A stretch of 64,000 nucleotides of DNA from a virus (IMGVR_UViG_3300033143_001281:1-64000); one strand, 5' to 3'; counted from the stretch's first letter, positions 38,164 to 55,827 are shown. Notes: generated by a model from the sequence alone, not told the origin. Made by a program: numbers and translations.

Positions 38164-39384
38164 ATGTCAAATTATTTAAAACAAAGAATCATTGAAAGCC
38201 TCAAATGGAAAAAACATCCCTCATATTGTGCAGATAAATTAAATATTACAGAATCACAATATACCAAATTAAAGAAGCAAATATTACAAGAAAGAAAGAA
38301 GGATAAAAAGAAAGATAAATTTTTTAGTAAAGCTGCAGATAATGCTCAATTAGTTGAATCAATAGATTTAGAAAAAGGTGAAGGTAAAATATCTGGTACA
38401 TTTGATCATGAACCTAAAAGTGCTGAAGAAATTATTAAACTACTTAAGATAGATACAAACAAATGGAAGCTATCACAATATTGGAATAAACAAATGGGTG
38501 ATCACTGGAGAGTTTCTGCATTAATTAGTCAGATAAAAAATCCAGATGAAAAACATTTTGAAGAGCTTCTTAAAAATTGGAAACCTCAGCAATATAAATT
38601 ACCAAAAACTAAACTAAATAAAAAAGGAGAAAAAGTTTGTGGTGTTATGTCATTACAAGATATTCATTTTGGTAAACAAGGAAATGAAACTATTGATAAA
38701 GATTTTGAGGAAACCATTATTAATTTATTAGAAAGAGCTACACCAGCACATAATATTGAAAAGATGTATTTTGTTGTAGGAGGTGATCTAATCAACATGG
38801 ATACATTTGAGGGTACAACTACAAGTGGCACAGGATTAGATAATTGTATGACAGCTACAGATGCGTATATACAAGCATTTAATGCCATGCATTGGGCTAT
38901 TGGTTATATAAAAGCTTTCTGTAAAGAACTAGTTATAGTTTATGTACCTGGTAATCATGATAGACTTTCTTCATTTCATTTAGTTCATGCTCTATCACAA
39001 TCTATAAATAGTACTGAAATTACTTGGGATATTAAATATGAAGAAAGAAAAGTTCATGTGTGGTATAATAATTTTAATGCATTTGAACATGGTGATAAAA
39101 GAAGTAAAAATAATCCATTAATATATGCATCCGAGTATCCTAAAGAATGGGGTCAGACAGTTAATAGAACTTTATTCAAAGGTCATATTCATACAGACAG
39201 AAAAGTAGAATACATGACATCTAATGAGACAGCAGGTTTTATAGAAAAGACATTACCTAGTCTAGGTAAAACAGATTATTACCACTATTCTAATAAGTAT
39301 GTGGGTAACAGAAGAACAGGTAAATTAGAATTACAGCATCCAACTTTAGGTAATATAGCTGAATTTGCACATCAAGTATTATAA
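38164..39384 (+). CDS. calcineurin-like metallophosphoesterase
   Basis: DIHFG, GGDL, GNHD, EHGD, GHIH motifs. Confidence 0.88.
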   Translation: MSNYLKQRIIESLKWKKHPSYCADKLNITESQYTKLKKQILQERKKDKKKDKFFSKAADNAQLVESIDLEKGEGKISGTFDHEPKSAEEIIKLLKIDTNKWKLSQYWNKQMGDHWRVSALISQIKNPDEKHFEELLKNWKPQQYKLPKTKLNKKGEKVCGVMSLQDIHFGKQGNETIDKDFEETIINLLERATPAHNIEKMYFVVGGDLINMDTFEGTTTSGTGLDNCMTATDAYIQAFNAMHWAIGYIKAFCKELVIVYVPGNHDRLSSFHLVHALSQSINSTEITWDIKYEERKVHVWYNNFNAFEHGDKRSKNNPLIYASEYPKEWGQTVNRTLFKGHIHTDRKVEYMTSNETAGFIEKTLPSLGKTDYYHYSNKYVGNRRTGKLELQHPTLGNIAEFAHQVL

Positions 39385-41645: not shown

Positions 41646-44600
41646 ATGGCAAAAAAAAGATCATCTTCTTCAAATAACAGGCAGAGGCAATCTAGAACAA
41701 GTTCATCTGTGCAAACAAATTCATTCACTAAAGGAATGAACAAAGACATTGCACCTTCTTTGGAAAATAACCAAAGTTGGTGGCATGCACGTAATGCTGC
41801 AAATAATTCAGAAGATGGTGATGTGGGTGTTATTGGTAATGAGCCAGCTAATTTAGCTTGTGGTGTTATACCATATACAATCATTGGTGCTGTTCATAGA
41901 TATGGGGATGAGTGGATAGTATATTCTACAGATGATATTAATTCTGAAATAGGAAAATTTGATGACAGTGAATGTAAATATGAAACACTTGTTAATGATC
42001 CTTGTTTAAACTTTAATAGAAAATATTTAATTACAGGTGCAGCAAAAGAAAATTTTGATTGTACATGGCAAGTCTATTGGGATGATGGTAATAATCCATC
42101 AAGAACATTAAATATTGATGACATACCTTGGAAAAAAGTTCAAGTCACAGGTCCAGATATAGATGGTAGTGATTGTGTTACTTATGAAGTTATTGAGCCA
42201 AAAAGATTAGACTGTGAACAAATAAGATTAGCGCCTTTAGTTGATACACCTTGTATTGTTTTAAGCAATTCAACTGACTCAGGTATGATACGCAATGGTG
42301 CTTATCAAGTGTTTGTTGCATATGTAGAAAATGAAGTAAGAGTAACTGATTATATTGGTATTTCAAATATTCAGACTATATGGAGTCATGAGGGAAGTAA
42401 TGGTTCTTTAAATATAAGTTTATCTAATTTAGATAAAGATTATGAATATTATGAAGTAGTACTGCTTAGAAGAAACCAAGGTCAAACTTCTGCTAAAAGA
42501 ATTGGTTTTTATAGTGTCCAGCAAAGTGATATAAATATAGATTATATAGATGAATCATTACCAGCAGTATCTTTAGAAACAATTCCTTTGCGTAGTCCAG
42601 CCTATGAAAAATCTGAATCAATGTTTGTTGTAAATGATTGGCTGATAAGACAAGGCCCAACAGAACAATTTGATTTTAATTATCAACCAGATGCAAACAA
42701 CATTCAAGTAGAATGGGTTGCTAATGCAGAAAATACTAACTTTTACTATAAAGGCGGTAATAAATATAATTTTTTAAGAGATGAGCAATATGCTTTCTTT
42801 ATAAGATGGATATATAATACAGGAGAAAGATCTTCTTCATATCATATACCTGGTAGAGCACCAGAATCTTATACTACTCCCAGCGGTTTAGTATATCAAG
42901 AAGATGAGATAATTTATGGAGATAATGTTTTAGATACTGTAAGTGGAGATAAACTATTTAAAGTATATAATACAGCTTCAGTTACTTCATTAGTTACTGA
43001 AGAGTTAGATGATGGTACTGTTGTTTATGCAAGAGGAAAAATGGGATATTGGGAATCTACGGAAAGATATCCTATGAAGCCTGATATTTGGGGTGACTTA
43101 TGTGGTAAGCCCATAAGACATCACAAAATGCCATCAGAAGAAACATCTAATGCATTAGCACTAACAAACACAAGTGGTGATTTAATAAATATATTGGGTG
43201 TTCAATTTTCTAATATTGCAAGACCCAAATATAATGATGGTACATTTATACCAAATGTAGTAGGATATGAGATACTAAGAGGTTCTAGATTAGGTGCAAA
43301 ATCTATACTTGCAAAAGGATTATTTAGAAACATGCGTAAGTATACTGTTCCTAATCCGGAAGATTTAATTGGAAATAATGTTCAAGGCTTATATGTAAAT
43401 TATCCTTATAATGATCTTAGACCAGATATTTATTTTCACACAGGTGGATCAGGTAGTTTAAAAAGAACAGATGGTTGTGATTCATTTGATGGTTCTATGA
43501 CATCTTATCAAGCATTAGGTGATGAACCTGATATAGGTGGTGAGCCGGCAGGTTATTCAAGAAAAGTTTTTAGTTTTTCTTCTCCTGATTTAATGTTTAC
43601 AAAGCCATTTTTAAATGCTTATGAAACTCGTATATATGGGCAGCTAAGTGGTAATGCAACTGGTAGATTTAAACAATCAGAAGACCATCCTCAGTTTAAG
43701 TTATTAAGAGGTGGTGCTGCATTAGTAGCATCTATTATAGGTTTTGGATATGCAATTCATCAGATTAGAGGTACAGAAGGTAGAAGAATGAATTCTACTG
43801 GAGGTAATATGACAAGTATTTCAGGTAAAGGAGAAGAAATAAAAGGTACAGAGCAAAGGGGTAACAATGGATTTGTTACGTTAACTGTACCACCTGGTGT
43901 TGCTACGGTAAATTGGAGTCCAAGAAGTGGAGGAGTAATTTCTGGTGGTGATTGGGAAATACAAGATCCTGCTAAGCTAACTACATATCAAACAGCTGCT
44001 ACTGCAGCAGTTGGTGCTTCTTCAGGCTCATCATTAGCATTATCTTTATTAATGGAAAGTTTAGCTGGTATAGGAGATTTATATACTGGTGGATTAGTTA
44101 CTGAGATTCAAGAAGGCGCTCAAATCACACAAAATGCTGGTCATGCAAGTGTGTTGGGTGTCAATTCAGGAATACAAACAAATACAAGAACAAAAGATAC
44201 AAGTACATCTAATATTCCACAAATATTTAGAACAATTACTGGTTTATTAAGTACTCAAACAAATCTTGCTATAGGAGGTAATGAAATTATTGAACTTCTA
44301 TATAATTTAGCAGATGAATCTTCTTTTGCATACAAGTACAATTCAGAAGGTTTTTTCTTTGATTTCTCAAATCAAACAAATGGTTTATGGAGAATAAAAA
44401 ATACTGATTCAAATTATATTGGTCAATCATTTCAAACATTTAATCAAGGTGAATATAAAATAAATAATTTATATAGACCTAGTACAGTTGCTGTAGCTTT
44501 AGATAAAGAATTAACTGATCCAGCTACAGTTGATACATCTAGATTTTCTATAGGTGGTGAACTGAATTTAACTTTAAATGCCGCAGGAGAATATGTAAGT

Positions 44601-47600
44601 TCTACTCCAGTAGAGTTTAGTGATAGTTATTTGCTAGAACCTACTACTGAAAGAGGATCAACAATATCAGCATATTATGGTGCATTAAAATTTAATTTTG
44701 ATAATCAATATGGTCAGTTATCTGGTATCAAACAAGTTCAAATGCGTGGTTGTGTTGAGCTGCTTGATCCTGATAAACCAGATGAATATTTATACAGCAG
44801 TAAACCTATTTTTGCAGGAGATACATTTGTAGGTAGGTATACTGAAAAAGTTATAATGCCAATATTTAGTAATTATTTATTAGGCCAACCTGATAATTAT
44901 ACTTTTGATTATTCTTTATATGTAAACATACCTTACCCAAGATGGTGGTTAAATTCTCAAAGATATGACATCACACCATTAGCAAGAGAAATAGCTACTC
45001 TAGGTCTTGTTAGTACTGGCTCTTTAGAAGCTCTTTATCCAAATGATTTATTTTATTTGGATAGAGGTAATGATTCTTGTGCTACAGGTTTTAATGCATT
45101 ATTTAATGATGATGATCCTAATCCAACATTTGAAATGCTATATGCATATATGTATACACATATTAATGGTATGTTAGATTTTTATGTGGAGTCTGAAATT
45201 AATTTAGATCAAAGAGATTGGGAAGATGAACCAGCAAAAAGAATATACAGTGTTTATGATTATAATGATACTGATGAATTATTCCATGCAGCTATAGAAA
45301 AAGAAGACAACTTTTATAAATATGATGAATCATTAAGTGTTGGAAAGTTTCCTACACAAATGGCATCTTTTGCTGAAGTACAGCGTTTAGATTATGATCC
45401 TTACATTGCTGAGACTTGTTATGTAAATTATCCTAAAAGGTTAATATATTCTTTACAGGCACAAGAAGAATCAAGAAAAGATTATTGGAGAGTATTTTTA
45501 AATAACAACTATAGAGATTTTAAAAATGATGTTAGTGTTATAAAACCAATCAATAAAAGCGGTGCATTAATATTCTTTCCACATTTGTCACCTCAAATGT
45601 TTCAGGGACTTGATACATTGAAGACTCAGCTTGATACTAAATTAACAATAGGTGATGGTGGTTTGTTTAGTCAACCCTTCCAAAATGTTGCAAATGCAGA
45701 TATATCTAATGAGTATGGTTCATGTGAAAGTTTAAGAGGTGTTATTAATACACCTGTTGGTTTATTTTTTATATCACAAGCACAAGGTAAGATATTTCAA
45801 TATGCTGGTAAAGGTCTTCAGCCAATATCAAATCAAGGTATGAAATGGTGGTTTGCAAAATATTTACCATCTAAATTTATAAAACAATTTCCAAATTCAG
45901 AGACATCAGTATGGACAGATAATCCAGTTCAAGGTGTGGGTTGTCAAGTTATATATGATTCAGTAGATGATGTAGTTTATTTTATGAAAAAAGATTATAA
46001 ACTTAAATCTCAATATATTGCAACAGCAGAATTTGTTGACACTGATTATAAGCCGGTTATTGTAGAAACTGTACCTGGTGTAAAAGTTAATGTAGACATA
46101 GGTGATCCAATTTATTTTGATGATTGTTCATGGACTATTAGTTATGATCCTAAAGTTAAAGCTTGGATTTCATTTCATGATTGGCACCCTGAATTAGCGT
46201 TACCAAGTATAAATCATTTCTTTACTACAAAAACAACAACTACTACTATACCTCAATGTCCTCCAGGATATTCTTATAATCCTTCAAATGGTTTGTGTGA
46301 AATAGCAATTAATCAAACTGTAGATGCAACTATTGTTGTTGATGAAATAACTGAAAATGTTGTATCAGGTGGACCAGTTAATTGTTTGGTAGATGTTGTG
46401 ATTGCAATGGACACTTCTGGTAGTACAAATAGTGCTAATAGAAGACAAGCACAACTTGCCCTTGTTGCTGCTTTCTTAGCGGATCCTCAAATAGTAACTT
46501 TGATGAATAATGCACAGATGCAGATTGGATTTACAGAATGGGATACTACAACTCAACCTTATAATATTCCTAATCCTGCTGGTGGTACTTGGTCTATGAG
46601 TAATACAGTTACTAATGCAGCGGTACAAAACTGGTATAACTCAGTATGGTGTGTTGGAGGAGGTTGTGGTACAAGTGAAATTGTAGGTTTGAATGGCGCA
46701 CAAGCATTAATAAATAATAAGGCTGGTTCTCAACTAGGAGATAGAAGTGCTCAACCAAATTTTAGAAATGTTATTTTATTTATAACAGATACAACAGGTA
46801 CTCCTGGTGCACAAACTGGACAACCTTTTCAAAGTAGCAATGTAGGTACTGGTACTGGACCTGCTAACCAATTTTTGTATGGTATATATTGTGGTGCTAC
46901 AAATGCAACTCCACCTAGTACAGCAACATTAAATGCAATAACACAAACTACAGGACCAGTTAACGTTGATCCATTTCAATTTGGTATAAATGCTGCCAAC
47001 CCAGCAACTTTTCAACCTGTTGCAAATGCTATTGCTGGTGCAGTTTGTGGAACAGATTATGAGTGTGAATGTCCTACAGGCTATACATTAGTTTATCCAG
47101 ACCCTGTTACTTCATCATATAGTTCTGCTACTGGTACTTGTACAGATGTTCCTGGAGAAGCTCCAATATGTAGAAGAGTTACTTGTGAGTGTCCACCTGT
47201 TGTTGTGCCTGGAACAGTAGTTACCGAATTGGGAACTTGTCCAGATAGTGCTCCTGGAATATATGATATTGGTGATCCTAATTGGGTTGACCCAGATCCA
47301 AGACGTTGTAATTTTTATTTTTATGAAAGTACAACAGCTAATTTTGAAGTAGGATCATTTTGGAGACATAATGTAAGATGTGATTTATTTGCAAATTACT
47401 ATAATGAAGATTACCCATGGGAAATAGATTTAATATCTAATACCGGTCAGTCAGTAAACACAGTCCGTAGTTTTGAATATCAATTAGAGACTTATGTTTA
47501 TAAAGGAGATCCTCAATATAATATGTGTGGGGGAGATAAATGGGAAGATTTAGATTTTAATTTTGATAGAGCAATTGTATATAACAATGATCAGACTTCT

Positions 47601-47969
47601 GGATTATTAAATATTAATCAGCAGTCTACAAATGATCCTTGGGGTAATCTAACATATCCAATAATAAATTTTAATAGTATAGATATTTTAGCATCTAAAG
47701 TTGAACACAAATTTAGATTTAATCAATTTTGGGATATAACAAATGATAGAGGAGAATTTACAAATGTTGAGCAGTCTATATTTGATACGGAATGTAATGG
47801 ATATATAAGACCTTTAAATAGTATAAATTTAAATTATAATAAACCTCCAACACAAAGAAAGAAGTTTAGACATTATTCAAATCAAGTTATATTAAGAAGA
47901 CAGCTTTCAGGAAATAGAAAAATGTTATTAAGATTAAATAATACTAAGTTATTACTATCACAAAGATAA
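41646..47969 (+). CDS. tail stabilisation (muzzle) protein with inserted vWA domain
   Basis: NSFTKGMNKD start, YWDDGNNP.R.LNI, GYWESTE.YP, PIRHHKMP, GDTFVGRY, WTISYDP...WISFHDW motifs. Confidence 0.8.
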   Translation: MAKKRSSSSNNRQRQSRTSSSVQTNSFTKGMNKDIAPSLENNQSWWHARNAANNSEDGDVGVIGNEPANLACGVIPYTIIGAVHRYGDEWIVYSTDDINSEIGKFDDSECKYETLVNDPCLNFNRKYLITGAAKENFDCTWQVYWDDGNNPSRTLNIDDIPWKKVQVTGPDIDGSDCVTYEVIEPKRLDCEQIRLAPLVDTPCIVLSNSTDSGMIRNGAYQVFVAYVENEVRVTDYIGISNIQTIWSHEGSNGSLNISLSNLDKDYEYYEVVLLRRNQGQTSAKRIGFYSVQQSDINIDYIDESLPAVSLETIPLRSPAYEKSESMFVVNDWLIRQGPTEQFDFNYQPDANNIQVEWVANAENTNFYYKGGNKYNFLRDEQYAFFIRWIYNTGERSSSYHIPGRAPESYTTPSGLVYQEDEIIYGDNVLDTVSGDKLFKVYNTASVTSLVTEELDDGTVVYARGKMGYWESTERYPMKPDIWGDLCGKPIRHHKMPSEETSNALALTNTSGDLINILGVQFSNIARPKYNDGTFIPNVVGYEILRGSRLGAKSILAKGLFRNMRKYTVPNPEDLIGNNVQGLYVNYPYNDLRPDIYFHTGGSGSLKRTDGCDSFDGSMTSYQALGDEPDIGGEPAGYSRKVFSFSSPDLMFTKPFLNAYETRIYGQLSGNATGRFKQSEDHPQFKLLRGGAALVASIIGFGYAIHQIRGTEGRRMNSTGGNMTSISGKGEEIKGTEQRGNNGFVTLTVPPGVATVNWSPRSGGVISGGDWEIQDPAKLTTYQTAATAAVGASSGSSLALSLLMESLAGIGDLYTGGLVTEIQEGAQITQNAGHASVLGVNSGIQTNTRTKDTSTSNIPQIFRTITGLLSTQTNLAIGGNEIIELLYNLADESSFAYKYNSEGFFFDFSNQTNGLWRIKNTDSNYIGQSFQTFNQGEYKINNLYRPSTVAVALDKELTDPATVDTSRFSIGGELNLTLNAAGEYVSSTPVEFSDSYLLEPTTERGSTISAYYGALKFNFDNQYGQLSGIKQVQMRGCVELLDPDKPDEYLYSSKPIFAGDTFVGRYTEKVIMPIFSNYLLGQPDNYTFDYSLYVNIPYPRWWLNSQRYDITPLAREIATLGLVSTGSLEALYPNDLFYLDRGNDSCATGFNALFNDDDPNPTFEMLYAYMYTHINGMLDFYVESEINLDQRDWEDEPAKRIYSVYDYNDTDELFHAAIEKEDNFYKYDESLSVGKFPTQMASFAEVQRLDYDPYIAETCYVNYPKRLIYSLQAQEESRKDYWRVFLNNNYRDFKNDVSVIKPINKSGALIFFPHLSPQMFQGLDTLKTQLDTKLTIGDGGLFSQPFQNVANADISNEYGSCESLRGVINTPVGLFFISQAQGKIFQYAGKGLQPISNQGMKWWFAKYLPSKFIKQFPNSETSVWTDNPVQGVGCQVIYDSVDDVVYFMKKDYKLKSQYIATAEFVDTDYKPVIVETVPGVKVNVDIGDPIYFDDCSWTISYDPKVKAWISFHDWHPELALPSINHFFTTKTTTTTIPQCPPGYSYNPSNGLCEIAINQTVDATIVVDEITENVVSGGPVNCLVDVVIAMDTSGSTNSANRRQAQLALVAAFLADPQIVTLMNNAQMQIGFTEWDTTTQPYNIPNPAGGTWSMSNTVTNAAVQNWYNSVWCVGGGCGTSEIVGLNGAQALINNKAGSQLGDRSAQPNFRNVILFITDTTGTPGAQTGQPFQSSNVGTGTGPANQFLYGIYCGATNATPPSTATLNAITQTTGPVNVDPFQFGINAANPATFQPVANAIAGAVCGTDYECECPTGYTLVYPDPVTSSYSSATGTCTDVPGEAPICRRVTCECPPVVVPGTVVTELGTCPDSAPGIYDIGDPNWVDPDPRRCNFYFYESTTANFEVGSFWRHNVRCDLFANYYNEDYPWEIDLISNTGQSVNTVRSFEYQLETYVYKGDPQYNMCGGDKWEDLDFNFDRAIVYNNDQTSGLLNINQQSTNDPWGNLTYPIINFNSIDILASKVEHKFRFNQFWDITNDRGEFTNVEQSIFDTECNGYIRPLNSINLNYNKPPTQRKKFRHYSNQVILRRQLSGNRKMLLRLNNTKLLLSQR

Positions 47970-49267
47970 TGAAAGAATCATTTGAATATAGCACAGTCAG
48001 AGGTTTGCCGGGTGGGCCTAACGAAGAAATTACTTATGTAACAGGTGTTTTTTCTATAGAGGGTTATAAAAGAAACTCACCTGATGTAAACAATCCTTAT
48101 AATATTATACCATCAGCAGATATTACTATGAAGGGTGTAGATTTTCCAGTTAGAGGATATGGTAATAATGGTATTGTTCAAGATATGATACCCGGAAAAG
48201 AAAATTATAACTATGGAGATGCAGATTATGTTGTTGAAGTTCCAATGGCTGAAACTGGTGGTGAAGGTAGATGTTGGCCTGGATATAAACCTGTTAGTGG
48301 AAAATTAGCATATACTTCTGGTAGTTGTGAAAAAGCGCAGGATGGTACAGAAACACAACCTATAGAGCTTGATGAAGTTGTTGTTAAAGCATATAATTTA
48401 AATAAGCTAACTGAAGATGAAAGAAAGCTTTATAACATTTTTAGAACAGGTGTAGGAAGATTGCAAATGATAGATAACCCTGATTATAATCCAAACTGGA
48501 AAGATAACCCATCAGAAAACATAGGTATTGTAAGAAGAGAAAAAATACCAATGAAAGATGAAGATGGTAGATCAGTGAGAGTAAAAGATTTTATGCCTAA
48601 TTTAAAATTATATAAAAAGATTGATGGAAATAATGTTGAATTTGATGTTTCTTTTGAAGATGCTTTACGTTTATATAGAGAAGCTGGATCACCAACTATA
48701 TCTAATAAACCAGGTTTTATGGCAAGATTAATGCCTGAAAAATATAAAGTTAATAAAAAATCTGGAGATTTTAGAGCTCATGCTAATCCGGTTTTTAATA
48801 AAATTTATATACCAGAGGGATCGGGTCCAAGTTATTTTAAACCTTTTCTTGCTGAAATAGCTCACATACATCCAGATTATAATTTTTTACCAACATTATC
48901 GGGTACACTAGACAGAATAAAAAGGTCATATCAAGAAAGTGATTTTATAATACCTGGTCCTGGTTTTATACCTTTACCTACTAAAATAGCAGATGATAGT
49001 AATTATAAAAGCAAAAAAGATTTTGAATATAAAACTCATCAGATAGCAGAAAAAAATATTGCAGATGCTTATTTTAAAAGAAAGGAAAAAGGCGGGCAAG
49101 TAAAAGAAATGTTTAGTACATATGCAAATTACATTAATGGAAAAGATAAAAGTCAAAATGCTAAAAAAGCATTTGATAAACTAAATAGAATCTATTATAA
49201 AGATGCTAAGAAAAGTGGGATGGGCGTAGCTAATTTTATTGCTACATATATTATTCCAAATTCTTAA
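47969..49267 (+). CDS. internal virion (cargo) protein
   Basis: IIPS..ITMKGVDFPV.G...M.PG..Y.Y...V.E.PMA..GG N-domain plus repeated xxGG motifs. Confidence 0.65.
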   Translation: MKESFEYSTVRGLPGGPNEEITYVTGVFSIEGYKRNSPDVNNPYNIIPSADITMKGVDFPVRGYGNNGIVQDMIPGKENYNYGDADYVVEVPMAETGGEGRCWPGYKPVSGKLAYTSGSCEKAQDGTETQPIELDEVVVKAYNLNKLTEDERKLYNIFRTGVGRLQMIDNPDYNPNWKDNPSENIGIVRREKIPMKDEDGRSVRVKDFMPNLKLYKKIDGNNVEFDVSFEDALRLYREAGSPTISNKPGFMARLMPEKYKVNKKSGDFRAHANPVFNKIYIPEGSGPSYFKPFLAEIAHIHPDYNFLPTLSGTLDRIKRSYQESDFIIPGPGFIPLPTKIADDSNYKSKKDFEYKTHQIAEKNIADAYFKRKEKGGQVKEMFSTYANYINGKDKSQNAKKAFDKLNRIYYKDAKKSGMGVANFIATYIIPNS

Positions 49268-49327
49268 ACCCTAAAGATTAGTGAATCTCCTTAATTATTT
49301 GTATATTAATAATATAATATTAGCAAA

Positions 49328-49996
49328 ATGGATCTAAATAAAATAAGTTTAAAACAACAAGGTGGGGATGCTATGATTCCAAATGAACCGGGTATGAGAA
49401 ATGAACCCAAAGTAGATCCTGCTATTCAACAAATTACTGAGTTTTTTGCACAAGCAATTGAGTCAGGTCAAAGACCTGAAGATGTTGTTATTTCTTTGAT
49501 GGATAAACAAGTTGATCAAGAAACTATCATTCAAGTTCTTACAGGTATAGGTTATGAACAAAATGACTTAGAAGTTTTGTTTCAAAACATTCAAGAAAGA
49601 ACTAACCCTGCACCTCCAACAGATCAACAGATAAATCAAAATCCTGAACAGTTAGCAAGACAACAAAAGATACAAGAAGAGCAAGAAGGTTTAAACGTTA
49701 ATATAGATCCTATTGAAATGGCTAAATCTGGTATTGAAATTAAGCCAGAAAATAGAGGTAAGTTTACTAAGTGGGCTAAAGCACGTGGTATGACTGTTAA
49801 AGAAGCATATACAAAGGTTTTAAAAAATAAAGATAGATACCCTGCATCAGTTGTAAAGATGGCTAATTTTGCACGTAATGCAGCTGGTTGGAAAAAAGGA
49901 CAAGAGGGTGTTGAAATACCAAGCCAAGCTTTAGATGTAGTTGAACCATCTGCTTTGGAAAGAATGCAAGCTAAACTTCGTAACTTCGTGGCTTAA
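49328..49996 (+). CDS. cargo protein, N-terminal part of a probably split gene
   Basis: GIEIKPENRGKFT...ANFARNAAGWK module; an 8-bp duplication at 49974-49989 causes the stop. Confidence 0.65.
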   Translation: MDLNKISLKQQGGDAMIPNEPGMRNEPKVDPAIQQITEFFAQAIESGQRPEDVVISLMDKQVDQETIIQVLTGIGYEQNDLEVLFQNIQERTNPAPPTDQQINQNPEQLARQQKIQEEQEGLNVNIDPIEMAKSGIEIKPENRGKFTKWAKARGMTVKEAYTKVLKNKDRYPASVVKMANFARNAAGWKKGQEGVEIPSQALDVVEPSALERMQAKLRNFVA

Positions 49997-52911
49997 TGAA
50001 AAGAGACGAAAGGGCATCATCTATGACTCCAGAAAATTCACCTCTATTCTGGGGCACAGAAGTAATGGGTGGTATTCCTGAAGGATATGCACTAAATCCA
50101 TTACAAACAGCGGAGTTTAGAGATGTAAATCAAAATGGTAAAGATGATAGGGAAGAAGGCCTATATATAAAAAGAGATTTAATACGTAAAGAAGATTTGC
50201 CTAAAAGCAATGGTCTAAAAAAAGGTGGGGAGTTTAAACCACATTTAATGTATGATCCAAAGACTGGTAAAGCTTATGAAGCTAAAGTACCAGCTGATCA
50301 TGAAAGAATGGCTAAGATGGGATACTTGCATAAAGATGAAATGCAAGGTGGTAAAGCTCAGATGGGTTTTGAAATGTCTGAGTTAGCAAATTTTCTAAGA
50401 ACCGTAGAAGGTGATGATCTAACCCAGTATAAACAAAATTATCAAAATAGTTTTATGGCTGAAGGATATAAACCTAGCCAAGAGGAGTTTGATAGAATGG
50501 ATCAATCTACAAAAGAAATGTATGTTGAATCTTTTCCTGGTCATTATAAAATATCAGCTGATACACCAACAGCTTTAGATTTATACAAGTTAAGATATCA
50601 AAATAGTTTTATGATGCCTACACAAACTGATGGGCCTCAATACAAATATGGTGGACCAAAAGGTGAAGAAGCTTATTTAGCAAGAAGAGATGCTGCAATA
50701 AAAGCATCTATGGATAAAGCATATACAGGTAAAGAATTAAATGATGCTATTCAAAAATATGCTAAAAAAGATAATATTTATATTACAGGTAAGGACGGCA
50801 ATGTGATATATGATGGTAGAAGTAATGAATCTCCTGCTGCTAATGGAGTAGTTACAAATCCATTTTATGTAAACCCTTTAATATTTAGTTCAGGTAAAAG
50901 TTTTCAGCCGGGTAGACTTGTAAATGATATTACTGATTTATATATGGGTGTTATTGGAACAGAAGATAGTCCTGGTATAATAGGTTATGGAGGAGCAGAA
51001 GCTAACTATTTACAAAATCAAAAAGATAAATATGAAAATGCAACATTTGAATATAAAGCAGATGATTCACCAGAAAATATAGAAGCTATAAAAGCTTACA
51101 TGAAACAATATGCTTTAGAGAATCCTAATGTAGAAGATGCAATTGCTAATTTACCAAATATTAAAACTAGTGAAAGAAAAGTAGATAAAGCATTAAACTC
51201 ATTTACAGATTGGTTTAAAAATGCAGGACAAAATGTAAAACAAGGTGGTCAAGAAACATATAATGCTATCATAGATATGATACAAGGTACTAAGGGTACT
51301 AGCACAAGAACACCGGGTATAGTTCCTGATGCTCAACTTGGTAATGGTGAATTTGGTGATTTTGATGTTATGACAGAAGATAACCCATATGGTTTACCAA
51401 ATTGGATGTTTGATTTAACTGTAGATCCTGGTCAAACTAATTATATGGAAGACACAAGGGCTGTGGCAGATGCACAGTTAGCAAAAAAGTTTCCTGGTTT
51501 AGGTGATACACCTTTGCAAGAAGAACAAAATAAACAACGTGAAAATCAAGAAAGAGATGCACAATTAACTGCAGATGAATTATTTGAAAAAATAGAACCT
51601 GGTACTATGGATATAGATACCAATGAAGGATTCTTTGAAAAAGCAGAAAGATTTGGTAATAGCACAGCTGTTAGACTGGCTGATCAACTTGCAGATAGTA
51701 CAGTTAAAATTTTTAGTAATGTAAATGACATTTATGCTGATCAAGCTGTTGATGAAGCACAAGTAGATTTTTATAATACTAGAGGTGCAGATTTTGTAGC
51801 TCCAGTTGTTACTGATGCTTTATTTAAAAGAGGAAAAGGACCAGATATAAATTCAGGTATTTATGGTTCTGAGGGAGATGCAACTACAGGTTTATATTTA
51901 ACCAAGAAAGGTGGTGAACCTAGTAATGCAGGTTTTCAAGCTTTGCCAGATTATGTTCAAGATAAGATAATGAAAAGACAAAATGGTGGAGAAGAAATAT
52001 ATAACAATCCTTTTGGTGATCTAAGATCTTTTACAGATGATTTGAATCAATATCAAGATGGAAATGGTGAGATGACAAAAGATGAATTAATGAGTCAAAT
52101 AATGGATCTTAGAAGTCAAGTAGAAAAAGAGGACTCAAGGATTCAAAATTTCCAAAGTAATATTGACAAGTTATATAGAGGCTTTTTAACATCTAAAGAA
52201 GTGGATGATGAGGAACTAAGAAAAGCGCAACTAGCAGAGATATTAGGTGCTGATTCTTCCATTGATCCTGCTTTATTTAATACTATTGAAGGTGATTATG
52301 GACAGCGTGTTGTAGGATTAGATAGTATTCCAGCAGCAACTAGAAAGTGGTTACAAAGTGGGACTAATGCAGGTTATGGTTGTACAAGCTATGGTTGCGG
52401 AATATTAAGACAAGCAGGTGCAACAACTGCAGAAGGCAAACCTTTTCCAATTATATCAGGAAATAGCCAACTTAATAGTATGATTGAACGCAATGAAGGA
52501 GGTTTAGGAATGCAATTAATGGAACCTGGTTTTACTGATTTATTACCAGGTGATAGAGTTGTATCTAATTATAGTACTTCAGGTGGATCTGGTTCTGCAC
52601 ATACAATGATATTTACTGGAGATTATGATGAAAGCGGTTCTCCTATAATGATGGAAAATAGTGGTGGTAGAGTTAGAGGTGGAGTAAGTTATAGATCATT
52701 GAGTGATATTAAAGGTTATCAAGATACTAGTGATCCTGAATCAGGATTAAGAGTAACAAGATATGTGGGTCAAGCACCTGAATTACGCACTCAACTAAGA
52801 GATTTACAAAGAGAATTAGACCGTAGAAATATGGCTGATATACCTTTAAAAACTAGACCTATAGCACAGCTTTCAACTTTAACCACCTACTTTTCAAAAA
52901 AGCGGTGGTGA
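49996..52911 (+). CDS. cargo/ejection protein with C-terminal NlpC/P60-CHAP-like domain; true end probably 52981 in the +1 frame
   Basis: YGCTSYGC, LLPGDRV, SAHTMIFTG; the +1 frame continues QKSGGETINVDATMLAKLIAAGADIEML to 52981. Confidence 0.7.
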   Translation: MKRDERASSMTPENSPLFWGTEVMGGIPEGYALNPLQTAEFRDVNQNGKDDREEGLYIKRDLIRKEDLPKSNGLKKGGEFKPHLMYDPKTGKAYEAKVPADHERMAKMGYLHKDEMQGGKAQMGFEMSELANFLRTVEGDDLTQYKQNYQNSFMAEGYKPSQEEFDRMDQSTKEMYVESFPGHYKISADTPTALDLYKLRYQNSFMMPTQTDGPQYKYGGPKGEEAYLARRDAAIKASMDKAYTGKELNDAIQKYAKKDNIYITGKDGNVIYDGRSNESPAANGVVTNPFYVNPLIFSSGKSFQPGRLVNDITDLYMGVIGTEDSPGIIGYGGAEANYLQNQKDKYENATFEYKADDSPENIEAIKAYMKQYALENPNVEDAIANLPNIKTSERKVDKALNSFTDWFKNAGQNVKQGGQETYNAIIDMIQGTKGTSTRTPGIVPDAQLGNGEFGDFDVMTEDNPYGLPNWMFDLTVDPGQTNYMEDTRAVADAQLAKKFPGLGDTPLQEEQNKQRENQERDAQLTADELFEKIEPGTMDIDTNEGFFEKAERFGNSTAVRLADQLADSTVKIFSNVNDIYADQAVDEAQVDFYNTRGADFVAPVVTDALFKRGKGPDINSGIYGSEGDATTGLYLTKKGGEPSNAGFQALPDYVQDKIMKRQNGGEEIYNNPFGDLRSFTDDLNQYQDGNGEMTKDELMSQIMDLRSQVEKEDSRIQNFQSNIDKLYRGFLTSKEVDDEELRKAQLAEILGADSSIDPALFNTIEGDYGQRVVGLDSIPAATRKWLQSGTNAGYGCTSYGCGILRQAGATTAEGKPFPIISGNSQLNSMIERNEGGLGMQLMEPGFTDLLPGDRVVSNYSTSGGSGSAHTMIFTGDYDESGSPIMMENSGGRVRGGVSYRSLSDIKGYQDTSDPESGLRVTRYVGQAPELRTQLRDLQRELDRRNMADIPLKTRPIAQLSTLTTYFSKKRW

Positions 52912-52983
52912 AACAATAAATGTTGATGCTACAATGTTAGCTAAATTAATTGCAGCAGGAGCTGATATAGAAATGTTATAATT

Positions 52984-55827
52984 ATGGCAAAAATTAAAAT
53001 AAATAAATTACCAAAAGGATTTAAACTTGTTGATGGTAAAGTTGTAGAAGAAAAAGTCATGCGAAATGGTGGAGACATTTATTCTACAGGTGATCAAGCT
53101 GATTATGGTTTAGTTACAACACCTCAAGAGTATTATGGGCAAACAATGTTTAATAATACAGATGACCAATCTACAAGATATAGTTTATCTGGAGTACCAC
53201 GTGAAGATGCAAACATTGAAGCAGAAGGTGGTGAGACAGTGCTTACTGATTTAAATGATGATGGTAATTTTGGTTTATATAATATTACTGGTCCAAGACA
53301 TTCACAAGGTGGTGTGCCAATGTTTTTACCAGAACAATCTTTTATTTTTTCAGATACACCTAAATTAAAATTTACAAAAGATGAGATGTCAGAATTTGGA
53401 ATGGGTGGTTCTAAGAAAACACCCGCTAAAATTTCTAAGAATTTTGGTTTGAATAATTATTATGCTGAATTAGACTCACAATATGCTGATGAAATATCAG
53501 CTGTTAGTGCAGAACTTATGTTAAAAAAGAACATGGAAGACCTTTCAAAATTAGCTTACATGCAAGAAGCAAAAAAGAATTTTGAAGATGGTGTACCATT
53601 AGCAGCACATCCATTTTTATTATCTGAAAATATTGATCCATTACAGTTTACAGCTCAAGTAGAAGATATAACACAGCAACAAGCAAGACAAAATGCTATT
53701 GCTCAATTATCTCCAGGTCAACAAGAACAATTATTTTTAGTTCAACAAATGTTGCAACAACAACAAAATCAAGTTGATGCAGCACAGGCTCCTGATCCTT
53801 CACAATTTGCAAACCAAATGCAAATGGCTAATGCAGATAACGATATGTTAAGCATGGCTGAATATGGTTATGAAATGAGAGAGTTTTTGGATAAAGCTCA
53901 AAGAGGTACTGAAATTGTATATAATAGAATGGAGGATGGAGACTATGGTATACCTAGAAAGGCTGAAGCAACTGAAGGTATGTATTATGTAAATGCTATA
54001 CCGGGCAGTGAAGATTTTGGTAAGGGTTATATATTTAAAGATGGTAATTATGTACATGTTGAAACAGTTGCATTTGATGAAGACTTTAATATAATAAATA
54101 GAGTACCTGCTGAAGAAACCGTTACTGATACTGAAGCTATTGATATTGTTGGTTCAGGAAATACTGAAGTTGTAGAAACAGAAGAAGAAACTACAAATAC
54201 TAATTCAGAATTTAATCCTTTCCCAATAGGATCTGAAAACTATATAGAAATTGAAAATCTTAAAAAAGAAGGTTATACATTTTCTATTGTAAGAGATGGA
54301 CCTGAAAAAGGAAGACTTAGAGCATACAGACCAAGAAAGTCTAGATTTGATGCGCAGGGTGACAGAGAAATAGCTCAATATGAAACAACAGGTAGTGGAG
54401 GTGATATAAATGTATATGATGACAATGTAAGTTCACAAGGAGATGTATTAAGAAATTCTTCTATAGCAAATGAAAGATATGGTAGATTAGCTGGTGTAAG
54501 ACCTGAGACACAAGGTTTTGCTGGTGGTGATTTTGCATTTGGTACTAAAGAAATTGAATCACAAGAATCACAACAAGCATTTGAAAGAATGTGGAGTGAT
54601 GTTTTAGATGATATAGAAGGTTGGGATTATAGAAGACCAGCATTTAAAAATGAAGAAGATAAAGCAAAGTATTTAAGAACAAAAGACAAAAGTCTTTTTG
54701 ATCCTGAGTGGTTAGGACAATGGAAACAATTTCAAATAAAATCTGAAGAATTAAGAAAAGCAGATGCTAAAAGATTAGGTATTCCATATGTACCATATTA
54801 CAAAAATCCAGGTGATGAAGGATACAGAACAGGAGATGGTCCTGATGGTATTCCTGGTTTAAATACCTATAATACACCAAGGTTTGACGTAGATGTACAA
54901 ACAGAAGATGAAAGATTTTTTGATTTACCAAAAAAGAAAGAAAAAATTGAAATAACTGATATAGAAGAAGCAGAAGGACCAGTTAAAAGGTATTGGGCAC
55001 AGGATATGAATAATATGACTGCTCTTGGTTTAATGAAAGATGAGTTATTTTTACCTTGGTCACCTAAGTTAGAAGAACAAAAAATTGATTATGTTTTAGA
55101 TGATTATACAGGAAGAGTAAATGCAATAATGGGAGCACAGAATGTTATGTCTGGAGCTTTAGGGGCATATGGTCCACAGGCTATTGCAAGAAGTAATATT
55201 CAAGGTAAGTCACTAAATGAAATAGGTAAAGCTATACAAACAACAAACACTAATAATGTTAATACAATGAACCGTGTTGCTGCAGCTCAAGCTTCTATGG
55301 ATAATAGAATTGATGCAGGTAATGTAGGTATAGAAAGACAGCTTTATGATGATACACAAGCATCATTACAACAAAAACAAAATTTTGATAATGCAAAAAT
55401 TGCTAAGGCAAATGAGTTATGGAATACAGCAATAACAAATGCATCTAATACATATAATATGAATACTATGTATGATGAGTTTAACATTCGTCCAGATTGG
55501 GGTGGAGATGTTATATTTACTGATATTGGAAGAAAACCATATAAGGATACTTCACAAAATAAACAAGAAGCTTTCTTAGATGCATATACTAAGCTTAGAA
55601 AAAATTTACCAGCAGATCAAAAAATAACACCTGAGTTATTGAATATGTACATGCAATTAGGAAATAGTGGTGGTTATACACCTAGTACACAAGGAAAAGC
55701 TGTATTACAACAAAGGGGTTTGACAGGTTACACGGGTAGTAATGTACCGCTTGGAAAAAAAGGAACAGAAATAAAAGATTTACCAAATGCATTTCCCAAT
55801 TTTACAGTAGGTAAGATGGGTGTATAA
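52984..55827 (+). CDS. cargo/ejection protein
   Basis: ANIEAEGGET...GPRHSQGGVP...FIFSD crAss-like cargo motif; Gln-rich and helical segments. Confidence 0.7.
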   Translation: MAKIKINKLPKGFKLVDGKVVEEKVMRNGGDIYSTGDQADYGLVTTPQEYYGQTMFNNTDDQSTRYSLSGVPREDANIEAEGGETVLTDLNDDGNFGLYNITGPRHSQGGVPMFLPEQSFIFSDTPKLKFTKDEMSEFGMGGSKKTPAKISKNFGLNNYYAELDSQYADEISAVSAELMLKKNMEDLSKLAYMQEAKKNFEDGVPLAAHPFLLSENIDPLQFTAQVEDITQQQARQNAIAQLSPGQQEQLFLVQQMLQQQQNQVDAAQAPDPSQFANQMQMANADNDMLSMAEYGYEMREFLDKAQRGTEIVYNRMEDGDYGIPRKAEATEGMYYVNAIPGSEDFGKGYIFKDGNYVHVETVAFDEDFNIINRVPAEETVTDTEAIDIVGSGNTEVVETEEETTNTNSEFNPFPIGSENYIEIENLKKEGYTFSIVRDGPEKGRLRAYRPRKSRFDAQGDREIAQYETTGSGGDINVYDDNVSSQGDVLRNSSIANERYGRLAGVRPETQGFAGGDFAFGTKEIESQESQQAFERMWSDVLDDIEGWDYRRPAFKNEEDKAKYLRTKDKSLFDPEWLGQWKQFQIKSEELRKADAKRLGIPYVPYYKNPGDEGYRTGDGPDGIPGLNTYNTPRFDVDVQTEDERFFDLPKKKEKIEITDIEEAEGPVKRYWAQDMNNMTALGLMKDELFLPWSPKLEEQKIDYVLDDYTGRVNAIMGAQNVMSGALGAYGPQAIARSNIQGKSLNEIGKAIQTTNTNNVNTMNRVAAAQASMDNRIDAGNVGIERQLYDDTQASLQQKQNFDNAKIAKANELWNTAITNASNTYNMNTMYDEFNIRPDWGGDVIFTDIGRKPYKDTSQNKQEAFLDAYTKLRKNLPADQKITPELLNMYMQLGNSGGYTPSTQGKAVLQQRGLTGYTGSNVPLGKKGTEIKDLPNAFPNFTVGKMGV

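Follow-up and report, generated by a model that had tools for sequence, protein, structure and literature searches.

A junction peptide at the module seams of cargo proteins in a marine crAss-like phage

Introduction

The closest described counterpart of the proteins analysed here is cargo protein 1 (C1, gp45) of crAss001 (Bayfield et al. 2023, PMC10172136; PDB 7QOG chain M). According to this publication, gp45 is mostly disordered and small ordered pieces of it bind the portal and the tail rings: rod-like density fills the portal, 179 bridging gp45 residues are modelled as one chain, and the mass spectrometry was tryptic and done on one excised gel band. In a full-text search of the paper, neither cleavage nor a protease is mentioned, and no mention of a junction motif or of module shuffling was noticed. 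The gp45 gene lies directly 3' of the muzzle gene, like the genes described below, but gp45 is a single protein of 842 aa while our phage has three proteins in its place.

Junction motifs between protein parts are known from polymorphic toxins, for example VENN in CdiA and DPxGL in Rhs proteins, where the peptide separates a constant delivery part from a swappable payload and marks recombination breakpoints. These toxins are bacterial and secreted and have one junction per protein, whereas the phage cargo has several junctions and would reside inside the virion; unlike the toxin payloads, cargo modules are not attributed a toxin role.

The polyvalent proteins of phages and conjugative elements (Iyer, Burroughs, Anand, de Souza and Aravind 2017, PMC5512222) share with the cargo that they are large, multi-domain, co-delivered with the DNA and subject to extensive domain shuffling; they have cell-wall hydrolase and zincin domains and a predicted (auto)proteolytic release of domains. 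That class is defined by its catalytic domains, while the cargo here has many non-enzymatic micro-modules of 22-60 aa and a seam peptide as its defining feature; the text of PMC5512222 contains no occurrence of 'linker' and no crAss phages. The giant phage SPN3US also packages ejection/inner-body proteins that enter the host, and its dedicated, essential T4-type head protease gp245 cuts after A-X-E, with sites that end in x-Glu and several motifs possible per protein (PMC10052503). The SPN3US motif is different in that it has three residues, occurs also in capsid and portal and mostly serves the removal of N-terminal propeptides (PMC10052503); no such protease was found in the phage studied here.

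Results

The cargo gene block

The window, which is the whole 64-kb stretch of DNA analysed, carries muzzle, ring, capsid and portal families (crAss_MUZ, CrAss_Ring_1, CrAss_Ring_2, Crass_capsid, portal) and is, judged by its sequence, a marine crAss-like phage. All features described lie on the plus strand. The gene of the muzzle protein, the tail-tip gatekeeper (41646..47969, 2107 aa; Pfam PF25731 crAss_MUZ, E=5.6e-25), is the start of the cargo gene block: four ORFs follow directly 3' of it (47969-55827), at the same place as the cargo genes of crAss001, and the order muzzle-O1-O23-O4-O5-O6 is conserved in about 80 loci of relatives. This conserved position agrees with a preliminary description of the DNA, which had taken the ORFs to encode cargo proteins. 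The best explanation is that ORF1, ORF2 plus ORF3, and ORF4 encode this phage's cargo (ejection) proteins of the C1 type, which are probably packed behind the tail muzzle and then injected. The largest cargo-position proteins are O5 and O6; O6 is a polymerase-associated polyprotein that carries a conserved zincin (HEAFH).

All four ORFs of the preliminary description are present, but they correspond to three ancestral proteins, because an 8-bp tandem duplication (49974..49989) splits O23 into ORF2 and ORF3 with overlapping stop and start codons (TAATG). The extra 8 bases are missing from a 91%-identical relative (L004), which has a single ORF of 1226 aa, and ORF2 and ORF3 are one fused ORF in nearly all relatives. 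If the split genome is viable, the two O23 halves need no covalent link.

A junction peptide restricted to cargo proteins

The motif was derived without a preset pattern, by counting all gapped triplets in 43 non-redundant relatives: the top triplets (GGE, A..G.E, Q.G.E, AQ.G, K.Q.G and P.AQ) are pieces of a single motif of 9-10 residues, (E)(L/I/M)-P-(K/M)-A-(Q/K)-x-G-x-E, with K-x-G-G-E as a variant. Conservation of A, Q/K and G is 85-96%; that of Glu at +2 is only 73%, and about 70% of sites have I, T, L, M or V at +3. No description of this junction peptide was found in the published literature.

The peptide is confined to cargo proteins, with 2-5 internal repeats per protein: a position-weight matrix (PWM) finds 199 sites in 120,000 aa of cargo but only 3 in the remaining virion proteins (muzzle, O5, O6 and others; 185,000 aa), and cross-validation on held-out halves gives 56 versus 1 and 56 versus 0. 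It is missing from the capsid, the portal, the giant polymerase-associated proteins and the muzzle (0 sites in the 2107 aa of the window's muzzle protein). Within the window a strict regular expression has 8 matches, all in ORF1-4 (13% of the window's proteome), while 2000 composition shuffles of ORF1-4 yield a mean of 0.18 and a maximum of 3. The enrichment and restriction that the preliminary description had proposed to check are real. Of its 19 motif strings, 18 are found in the ORFs to which they had been assigned (for example 48332-48352, 49718-49738, 50353-50373, 51973-51993, 53854-53874, 53893-53913 and 55753-55770), but QKSGGE occurs in none of the four, the closest string being V-K-Q-G-G-Q-E at 51235. 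The window copies are unequal: 8 fit the strict expression, about 11 have a PWM score of at least 7.5, and the remainder are looser x-G-G-x variants.

Forms of the core A-(Q/K)-x-G-(G) are also seen outside these relatives: A-x-(x)-G-G in three compared proteins of gut crassviruses, and Q-x-G-G in gp040 of Cellulophaga phage phi4:1. In crAss001 gp45 (copies at 209, 263, 332, 373, 427, 562 and 828) an aromatic residue is present and the Glu is missing; A-x-(x)-G-G stands at the edges of both segments, 214-245 and 425-552, that are resolved by cryo-EM.

Modules of the individual proteins

ORF1 (47969..49267) encodes O1 of 432 aa, whose residues 29-98 match PHROG 36695, a virion structural protein. 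Its N-terminal module (aa 1-99) and its C-terminal module are conserved and the middle is variable; the proteins of this class (74 loci) range from 400 to 2276 aa and share their first module, F5, and their last, F6. A Cys-containing micro-module (CWPGY...GSC, 48245..48352) has a motif copy at either end (48245-48265 and 48332-48352). The relative L005 has a different module between the two equivalent copies, and a zinc-ribbon-like module (CxxC...CxxC, family F14) ending K-A-Q-x-G-x-E is found at this place in relatives. The C-terminal module is preceded by a weak copy, K-E-K-G-G-Q (49082..49099), at a seam where relatives have F-K-E-G-G-S or K-R-L-G-G-E.

ORF2 (49328..49996; alignment A2) is the N-terminal part of O23 with modules F0 and F7. 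Behind an 8-residue N-terminal leader stands K-Q-Q-G-G-D (49352..49369), within a segment (1-25) of pLDDT <50 in the AlphaFold model of the L005 orthologue. The best copy of the window, M-A-K-S-G-I-E (49718..49738, PWM score 29.4), lies in a linker (113-142) that also has pLDDT <50 in this model, and K-S-G-I-E-I is invariant in 11 orthologues. The adjoining F7 (IKPENRGKFT...NAAGW, 49739..49894; PHROG 20603) is a three-helix micro-domain of about 58 aa (pLDDT 76-83, same model) with tblastn matches in gut crAss phages. It is also present in crAss001 gp45, at about 376-425 with I-A-K-D-G-G-D in front; reading gp45 shows IK.E.(N/K)(R/K)GKFT to be common to both proteins. F7 ends in a degenerate copy, K-G-Q-E-G-V-E (49895..49915), where orthologues have W-K-K-E-E-G-G-E.

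The remainder of O23 is ORF3 (49996..52911, 971 aa). Its module F8 (FKPHLMY...GY.H, 50215..50373; alignment A6), with L-K-K-G-G-E before and K-A-Q-M-G-F-E after, has invariant His, Met, His and His and is modelled as a beta-hairpin plus helix (pLDDT 84-86, L005 orthologue). F8 is present in at least 458 IMG/VR stretches and in the Methylophilales myophage Melnitz; the motif flanks it in 13 of 14 cargo-like hosts versus 5 of 50 other hosts, and thus the peptide goes with the setting of a cargo protein rather than with the modules themselves. A YLARRD-type module (F11-like, 50641..50736) between Y-K-Y-G-G-P and K-A-Y-T-G-K-E is internal in ORF3 and C-terminal or elsewhere in relatives. After a variant copy D-A-Q-L-G-N-G-E (51328..51351) follow module F26 (GFQALPDYVQ, 51901..51993), between T-K-K-G-G-E and K-R-Q-N-G-G-E, a further variant Q-Y-Q-D-G-N-G-E (52048..52071, PWM score 13.7) and the C-terminal Cys/His domain F19 (52069..52908), found in only 4 of 43 lineages. 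By eye, crAss001 gp45 has an F26-like string, S-F-Q-A-L-P-E, after its ring-bound helix. Five named modules had been attributed to unrelated aquatic phages as well; this was borne out for two of them, FKPHLMY (Melnitz and IMG/VR) and IKPENRGKFT (gut crAss phages, PHROG 20603). With the YLARRD and GFQALP modules, short queries of low power, a search of GenBank phages found nothing at E<=0.1.

ORF4 (52984..55827; alignments A1 and A3) encodes O4 of 947 aa, conserved at 1-290 and 660-947 and variable in between. A 25-residue N-terminal hairpin module is followed by M-R-N-G-G-D (53059..53076), whose G29 and G30 are invariant in 34 orthologues (stretch 24-76, pLDDT <50). The double motif M-A-E-Y-G-Y-E ... 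K-A-Q-R-G-T-E (53854..53913, PWM scores 19.1 and 22.8; stretch 262-345, pLDDT <50) separates the conserved N-terminal part of O4 from its variable middle, and similarity of orthologues collapses immediately after it. Finally, G-K-K-G-T-E (55753..55770, PWM score 11.7) precedes a conserved 18-residue C-terminal tail; G927 is invariant, E929 nearly so, and the stretch 912-947 has pLDDT <50. By sequence comparison, ORF4 is likely the counterpart of the C-terminal half of crAss001 C1: hhalign aligns 62-163 weakly with gp45 439-535 (E=0.0013, probability 18%), phmmer and Foldseek found no similarity between the two proteins, and overall homology is weakly supported.

The motif marks the seams between modules

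The ends of BLAST alignments (HSPs) cluster at motif G to G+4 (1557 versus a null of 457 +/- 23): homology among relatives stops at the motif glycine, and module families are delimited by the motif, which supports the earlier claim that it brackets discrete modules. The suggested comparison of module order across relatives points the same way: modules of 22-60 aa shift position among orthologues, with F7, F8, F11, F19, F25 and F26 switching position or protein, whereas the end modules keep their places. Every clear motif copy in two AlphaFold models sits in a stretch of pLDDT <50, and the modules on either side have pLDDT 76-95. Codon usage at the motif residues L, P, K, A, Q, G and E matches the background usage of these genes, indicating selection on the protein rather than the DNA, and the window's copies diverge at many third positions. 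The junction peptide is thus selected at protein level and located in disordered linkers, and the data support a view of cargo proteins as strings of small autonomous swappable modules with the motif at the seams.

Discussion

Each cargo protein resembles a string of beads with the junction peptide at every seam. The invariant N- and C-terminal modules are likely the parts for virion incorporation or anchoring, and what lies between them varies: small autonomous modules (22-60 aa) in series, plus a few larger domains. The seam may set the places at which modules can be inserted, lost or moved without harm to their neighbours.

Whether the peptide is cut is the main question. We favour, at somewhat less than an even chance, that no cut is made in the virion and that the peptide serves as a flexible seam or handle; this would allow the chain to be kept in an extended state and to thread through portal and tail. 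The single-chain portal model, the lack of a prohead protease (no S77, S78 or ClpP type was found, the S77 search having no positive control) and the absence of the motif from O5 and O6 are indications for this reading. In the crAss001 model, gp45 segment 425-552 begins A-F-G-G and is continuous with the following domain, which speaks against cleavage directly behind G-G at this seam. A passive hinge, however, leaves the 85-96% conservation of A, Q/K and G unaccounted for; some factor has to recognise the peptide. Also, the intact crAss001 chain of 179 residues would span about 420 A according to the same source, close to full extension, which would no longer be needed if gp45 were cut.

The preliminary description had read the motif as a protease cleavage signal, which the missing prohead protease and the continuous A-F-G-G seam speak against; we consider this possible but doubtful. 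The peptide would be recognised by a protease that is carried in the virion or acts in assembly, for instance the conserved zincin of the polymerase polyprotein or an unrecognised head protease, and the cargo would be true polyproteins cut after G-x-E and before a hydrophobic residue, during maturation or after ejection, with release of 20-60 aa peptides and enzymes. The site is conserved, exposed and disordered, and G-x-E plus a hydrophobic residue resembles the after-Glu sites of T4- and phiKZ-type head proteases, those of the phiKZ type having the form (S/A/G)-x-E. The frequent I, T, L, M or V at +3 would fit as well, as a hydrophobic residue suits the zincin S1' pocket in thermolysin-like enzymes. 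The resemblance extends to A-X-E of the SPN3US head protease (PMC10052503), and the HEAFH zincin conserved in O6 travels in the same particle; Drobysheva et al. proposed that fused crAss-like polymerase polyproteins are cleaved and that gp65 carries a zincin (10.1101/2020.03.07.982082). The partly free module order, the split of O23 and the distance of 420 A between the gp45 segments in crAss001 are further points in favour. Against cleavage, the motif is absent from capsid and portal, the usual protease targets, and from the polymerase polyprotein; the Glu is incompletely conserved and absent from the gut crassvirus copies compared; and the strict constancy of the first and last modules is what one would expect of an intact chain.

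It is improbable that the peptide is a short linear motif that binds either a repeated inner site (tail rings, portal or muzzle) or, during ejection, a host periplasmic protein, and by this binding orders or ratchets the cargo thread. Such motifs are typically disordered peptides under strong conservation at the protein level, the particle has 12-fold repeated inner surfaces and, in crAss001, gp45 segments beside the motif are bound to rings and portal. But no partner was found, and four of the five gp45 copies that flank resolved segments fall outside the residue ranges given in the crAss001 paper, unlike a tightly docked element.

A capsid-loading signal, the other role proposed initially, with each copy targeting the protein or its fragments into procapsid or tail, is very improbable: the motif is restricted to cargo-position proteins, but O5 and O6 are without it, and its copies are internal, unlike known targeting sequences, which are terminal (e.g. 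the T4 capsid-targeting sequence). The invariant terminal modules are better candidates for this role. Least credible, and already disfavoured, is a recombination linker acting as DNA microhomology for cassette exchange with the peptide as by-product, since the coincidence of homology breakpoints with the motif and the shuffling of modules would fit but the background codon choice, the divergent third positions and a conserved unit of at most 27 nt do not.

The idea of a cocktail of small effectors stands in part. Resolved gp45 segments bounded by the motif are structural anchors, which speaks against it, but enzyme-like modules do occur and are of cell-wall type: relatives have SLT/LysM-like segments (by eye) and HExxH sites (by regular expression). 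F19 had no sequence match in Pfam, NCBIfam or PDB; it is possibly a CHAP/NlpC-P60-like cell-wall peptidase, its ESM Atlas neighbours with CHAP or NlpC/P60 scoring 0.87-0.88, a lead only.

The cargo gene block

The source record is an 80-kb IMG/VR contig of an uncultured virus, about 70% complete, in which the structural block is present. The window has a G+C content of about 32% and consists of one long rightward gene block. A Pfam scan identified a P22-like portal (P22_portal), the crassvirus major capsid protein, tail ring proteins 2 and 1 and the muzzle (families of the Crassvirales virion block matched: PF25731, PF23898, P22_portal, PF25702 and PF24228), and PHROG identified a large terminase-like protein. 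Muzzle, tail ring, crass-type capsid and portal genes all lie in one block and are followed by the cargo genes, the arrangement of a Crassvirales virion and cargo block. ORF1 to ORF4 (47969-55827) start immediately downstream of the gene for the muzzle protein (41646-47969, 2107 aa, PF25731); according to the crAss001 structure paper, this position is occupied in crAss001 by the cargo proteins C1 (gp45) and C2 (gp46), followed by polymerase-associated giant proteins (Bayfield et al. 2023, PMC10172136). The order muzzle, O1 (ORF1), O23 (ORF2 and ORF3), O4 (ORF4), O5 and O6 is kept in about 80 related aquatic contigs.

In nearly all of these relatives, ORF2 and ORF3 are a single gene. Here, they are split by an 8-bp tandem duplication (AACTTCGT twice, 49974-49989) with overlapping stop and start codons (TAATG). 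The 91%-identical relative L004 has no such duplication, and its O23 is one ORF of 1226 aa; the split may be an assembly error, mark a defective genome or be a gene division with which the phage is viable.

Elsewhere in the window, a fibre-like protein of 1423 aa (29628-33899) combines YadA-head repeats with an endosialidase-chaperone (Peptidase_S74) domain at its C-terminus, a virion-block protein of 736 aa (35241-37451) has vWA domains, and a DNA-repair exonuclease-like gene (38164-39384; PHROG 704, E=1.7e-40) lies in the middle of the tail block, between tail-like and ring proteins.

A conserved peptide restricted to cargo proteins

The preliminary description had listed 19 strings from ORF1 to ORF4 as copies of one repeated peptide; 18 of them are present there and one, QKSGGE, is not. 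The peptide is enriched in the cargo genes: a strict regular expression has eight matches in the window, all within ORF1 to ORF4, while shuffles predict 0.18.

To avoid circularity, all gapped residue triplets were counted in cargo proteins from 43 non-redundant lineages. The triplets with the largest excess (GGE, A..G.E, Q.G.E, AQ.G, K.Q.G, P.AQ and LP..Q) are parts of one motif, and none of the top cargo triplets is enriched in muzzle, O5 or O6. The refined position weight matrix has the consensus (E)(L/I/M)-P-(K/M)-A-(Q/K)-x-G-x-E-(I/L/T/M/V), with conservation of 85% for A, 92% for Q/K, 96% for G and 73% for E, and finds 199 sites in 120,000 cargo residues versus 3 sites in 185,000 control residues. 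When the matrix was built from one half of the lineages and applied to the other half, it found 56 versus 1 and 56 versus 0 sites. A second form of the motif, K-x-G-G-E/D, is 4.7 times commoner in cargo proteins than elsewhere. Within the window's own genome, muzzle, O5 and O6 (6,289 aa together) have no site with a score of 5 or more, and a scan of all its non-cargo ORFs gave a single site, which is not in the muzzle. Chance or composition as the source of the motif is thus rejected by triplet counts, held-out matrices and shuffles.

The peptide is the seam between exchangeable modules

Homology between cargo proteins breaks at the motif glycine: in an all-against-all BLAST, 1557 internal alignment ends fall between this glycine and the fourth residue after it, versus 457 ± 23 expected. 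With the relocation of the modules between the copies, this confirms the earlier suggestion that the motif delimits modules. At motifs of the K-A-Q type it is the alignment ends that accumulate and not the starts, and the peptide therefore travels with its upstream module.

Cutting the cargo proteins at the motif results in segments with a median length of 97 aa (lower quartile 43 aa) that cluster into 144 families of sharp lengths. The IKPENRGKFT module measures 58 aa and the FKPH.MY module 41-44 aa, and other modules are 22-26 aa long. Modules change place inside O1, O23 and O4 and also move from one of these proteins to another; in each cargo protein the first and last modules are fixed and the internal ones are mobile. 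For example, the FKPH.MY module follows the second module in many lineages and precedes the last module in others, the YLARRD module may lie at the C-terminus, lie internally or occur in duplicate, depending on the lineage, and both a Cys/His domain and a lytic-transglycosylase-like segment (recognised by eye) are found in either O1 or O23. The shuffling is directly visible in the translations of two related loci, L005 and L007.

Structure predictions place the motif between folded units. An AlphaFold2 model of the L005 O23 orthologue (residues 1-250) has three confident modules (pLDDT 76-88), and the motif copies are in the stretches between them, with pLDDT <50. In the model of ORF4, M-R-N-G-G-D, a double motif at residues 291-310 and G-K-K-G-T-E are all in low-confidence stretches, and E-A-E-G-G-E is at the edge of the N-terminal domain.

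Polyvalent proteins (Iyer et al. 2017, PMC5512222) likewise combine many unrelated domains in a single polypeptide and have architectures that are shuffled among relatives. These and crAss001 C1 are the nearest known concepts, and the seam peptide is described for neither in the available parts of the two papers; a search of the literature on Crassvirales also found neither the motif nor proteolysis of cargo proteins described. The peptide offers a simple rule for dividing otherwise unannotatable cargo proteins into functional modules and for tracing their exchange between phages. Pfam, NCBIfam and PDB sequence searches of ORF1 to ORF4 returned nothing, Foldseek searches of the PDB with the IKPENRGKFT module, with the FKPH.MY module, with a further module of ORF2 and with ORF4 had no match at E<=0.001, and tblastn of the YLARRD module, the GFQALP module and ORF4 had no match among GenBank phages.

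The C-terminal domain of ORF3 (52069-52908) has a Cys...His pattern and is present in only 4 of the 43 lineages, in one case in O1 instead; for this reason it was rejected as a general processing enzyme. Its neighbours in the ESM Atlas are annotated as CHAP or NlpC/P60 (scores 0.87-0.88), which is a lead only.

A zinc-ribbon-like micro-module of 33-43 aa (CxxC...CxxC) that ends in K-A-Q-x-G-x-E is found in O1 of L060 (3513-7493) and in seven other O1 homologues; in two relatives it fills the slot of the CWPGY...GSC module of ORF1.

The motif belongs to the cargo context

The FKPH.MY module (FKPH.MY...H.R....GY.H, about 35-40 aa; 50233-50352 in the window, also in loci L090-L169) has invariant His, Met, His and His residues. 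It occurs in the Methylophilales myophage Melnitz and in no fewer than 458 IMG/VR stretches. A set of 64 distinct host ORFs allows the motif to be separated from the module: a motif copy flanks the module on at least one side in 13 of the 14 otherwise cargo-like host ORFs, whereas 45 of the 50 other host ORFs, many of them about 100-450 aa long, have the module with no flanking motif. The motif as an intrinsic module end is thus rejected for FKPH.MY: the motif belongs to the cargo context and not to the module.

The module is very widespread in aquatic viral contigs, often encoded by small ORFs (about 100 aa) or as part of unrelated proteins, and looks like a mobile metal-binding mini-domain. 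ORF3, which contains it, matches no Pfam family, and the hits of a word-indexed search with the module were mostly unnamed, length-matched proteins of 600-1300 aa.

On a contig of 44 kb (IMGVR_UViG_2823602183_000183), an ORF of 1251 aa combines FKPH.MY and IKPENRGKFT modules with K-A-Q-x-G-G seams, an ORF4-like domain (by eye) and a C1-like C-terminus. As this contig is much smaller, the cargo architecture probably extends beyond phages of about 100 kb.

Cargo proteins of crAss001 and phi4:1

Copies of A-x-(x)-G-G are present in crAss001 gp45 and in two other gut crassvirus proteins. In gp45 they are at positions 209, 263, 332, 373, 427, 562 and 828, and after the copy at 373 (I-A-K-D-G-G-D) comes an IK.K..KGKFT module, by reading the same as in ORF2; this module is common to ORF2 and the gut crAss proteins. 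Cryo-EM resolved two segments of gp45, one bound to the tail rings (residues 214-245) and one to the portal (residues 425-552; PMC10172136). Both begin within a few residues of a motif copy, and the second ends ten residues before one. ORF4 (62-163) has a weak match to gp45 (439-535) by hhalign (E=0.0013, probability 18%); phmmer against the PDB and Foldseek found no homology between the two.

Outside Crassvirales, muzzle homologues are found in the Cellulophaga phages phi4:1 and phi17:2, in Flavobacterium psychrophilum phages and in the Leptolyngbya phage Lbo-JY46; an epsilon crAss phage has one too. In phi4:1 (NC_021788.1, 13602-25424), gp040 and gp041 are encoded downstream of the muzzle homologue and are annotated as virion proteins proven by MS/MS. 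The N-terminus of gp040 is O1-like and is accompanied by several Q-x-G-G copies; with two HExxH sites as a further feature, both proteins look like cargo proteins.

Is the seam cut?

Crassviruses are among the most abundant gut phages and are common in the sea. How a cargo load of megadaltons is packed, threaded through the tail and deployed is a question left open by the crAss001 structure, and a conserved seam peptide provides a concrete experimental handle on it. Our tentative preference is that the seam is left uncut, or acts as a handle. In crAss001, the modelled portal-bound domain begins with A-F-G-G, indicating that the chain is continuous across the motif at this seam, which argues against cleavage there.

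That the motif is a protease cleavage site is possible, if doubtful. The conservation of the peptide is more than a passive hinge would call for, and G-x-E followed by a hydrophobic residue resembles the sites cut after Glu by giant-phage head proteases (PMC10052503). Cleavage of fused polymerase polyproteins has been suspected by Drobysheva et al., who point to a zincin (10.1101/2020.03.07.982082). Cleavage would also explain why gp45, one gene product, is seen in both tail and capsid of crAss001, where the intact-chain model stretches 179 residues over about 420 Å (PMC10172136). The mass spectrometry described in the same paper was tryptic and on one excised band and could not have shown cleavage; the supplement of the crAss001 isolation paper does not state which gel band contained gp45. 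If the peptide is a protease code, the cargo proteins would be polyproteins in the strict sense, set free in the host piece by piece; we know of no such case in tailed phages.

Against a cleavage site of the T4/phiKZ type stand two results: the motif is missing from capsid and portal, as well as from muzzle, O5 and the zincin-bearing O6, and there was a failure to find a prohead protease: the 80-kb record has no match to PF03420 (S77), PF04586 (S78) or PF00574 (ClpP), the PF03420 search being weak for want of a positive control, and Pfam and PHROG scans of about 29 window ORFs, nearly all in the structural block, found no protease.

Among the cargo proteins themselves, HExxH is present in none of 46 O23, none of 43 O4 and 6 of 36 O1 relatives. 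The obvious candidate is the giant O6 protein (59173-68445, extending beyond the window), which is separate from O1, O23 and O4 and has a predicted zincin motif, P-Y/F-K/R-Y-H-E-A-F-H-G-V-F-R, at about aa 2171; its conserved HEAFH lies about 1.7 kb past the window end. The zincin motif is found in 28 of 42 relatives, and in the remaining ones it is more likely cut off by locus ends. The next ORF (68547-73436) has a DFDxD polymerase motif at aa 696. A particle-borne protease of the O6 type that reads the motif and splits the polyproteins into micro-peptides and cell-wall enzymes is rather unlikely; were it true, crAss-like phages would inject true polyproteins that give a lineage-specific set of such products. 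The idea of a Pup-like C-terminal G-G-E was dropped, as no Pup ligase was found in a search with a positive control.

Among non-proteolytic roles, that of a docking motif appears improbable. A capsid-loading signal, which the preliminary description had offered beside a protease site, is very improbable. Least credible of all is a DNA linker, and a recombination signal at the DNA level is rejected: codon choice at the L, P, K, A, Q, G and E of the motif is that of the rest of the same genes, and the constraint is therefore on the peptide.
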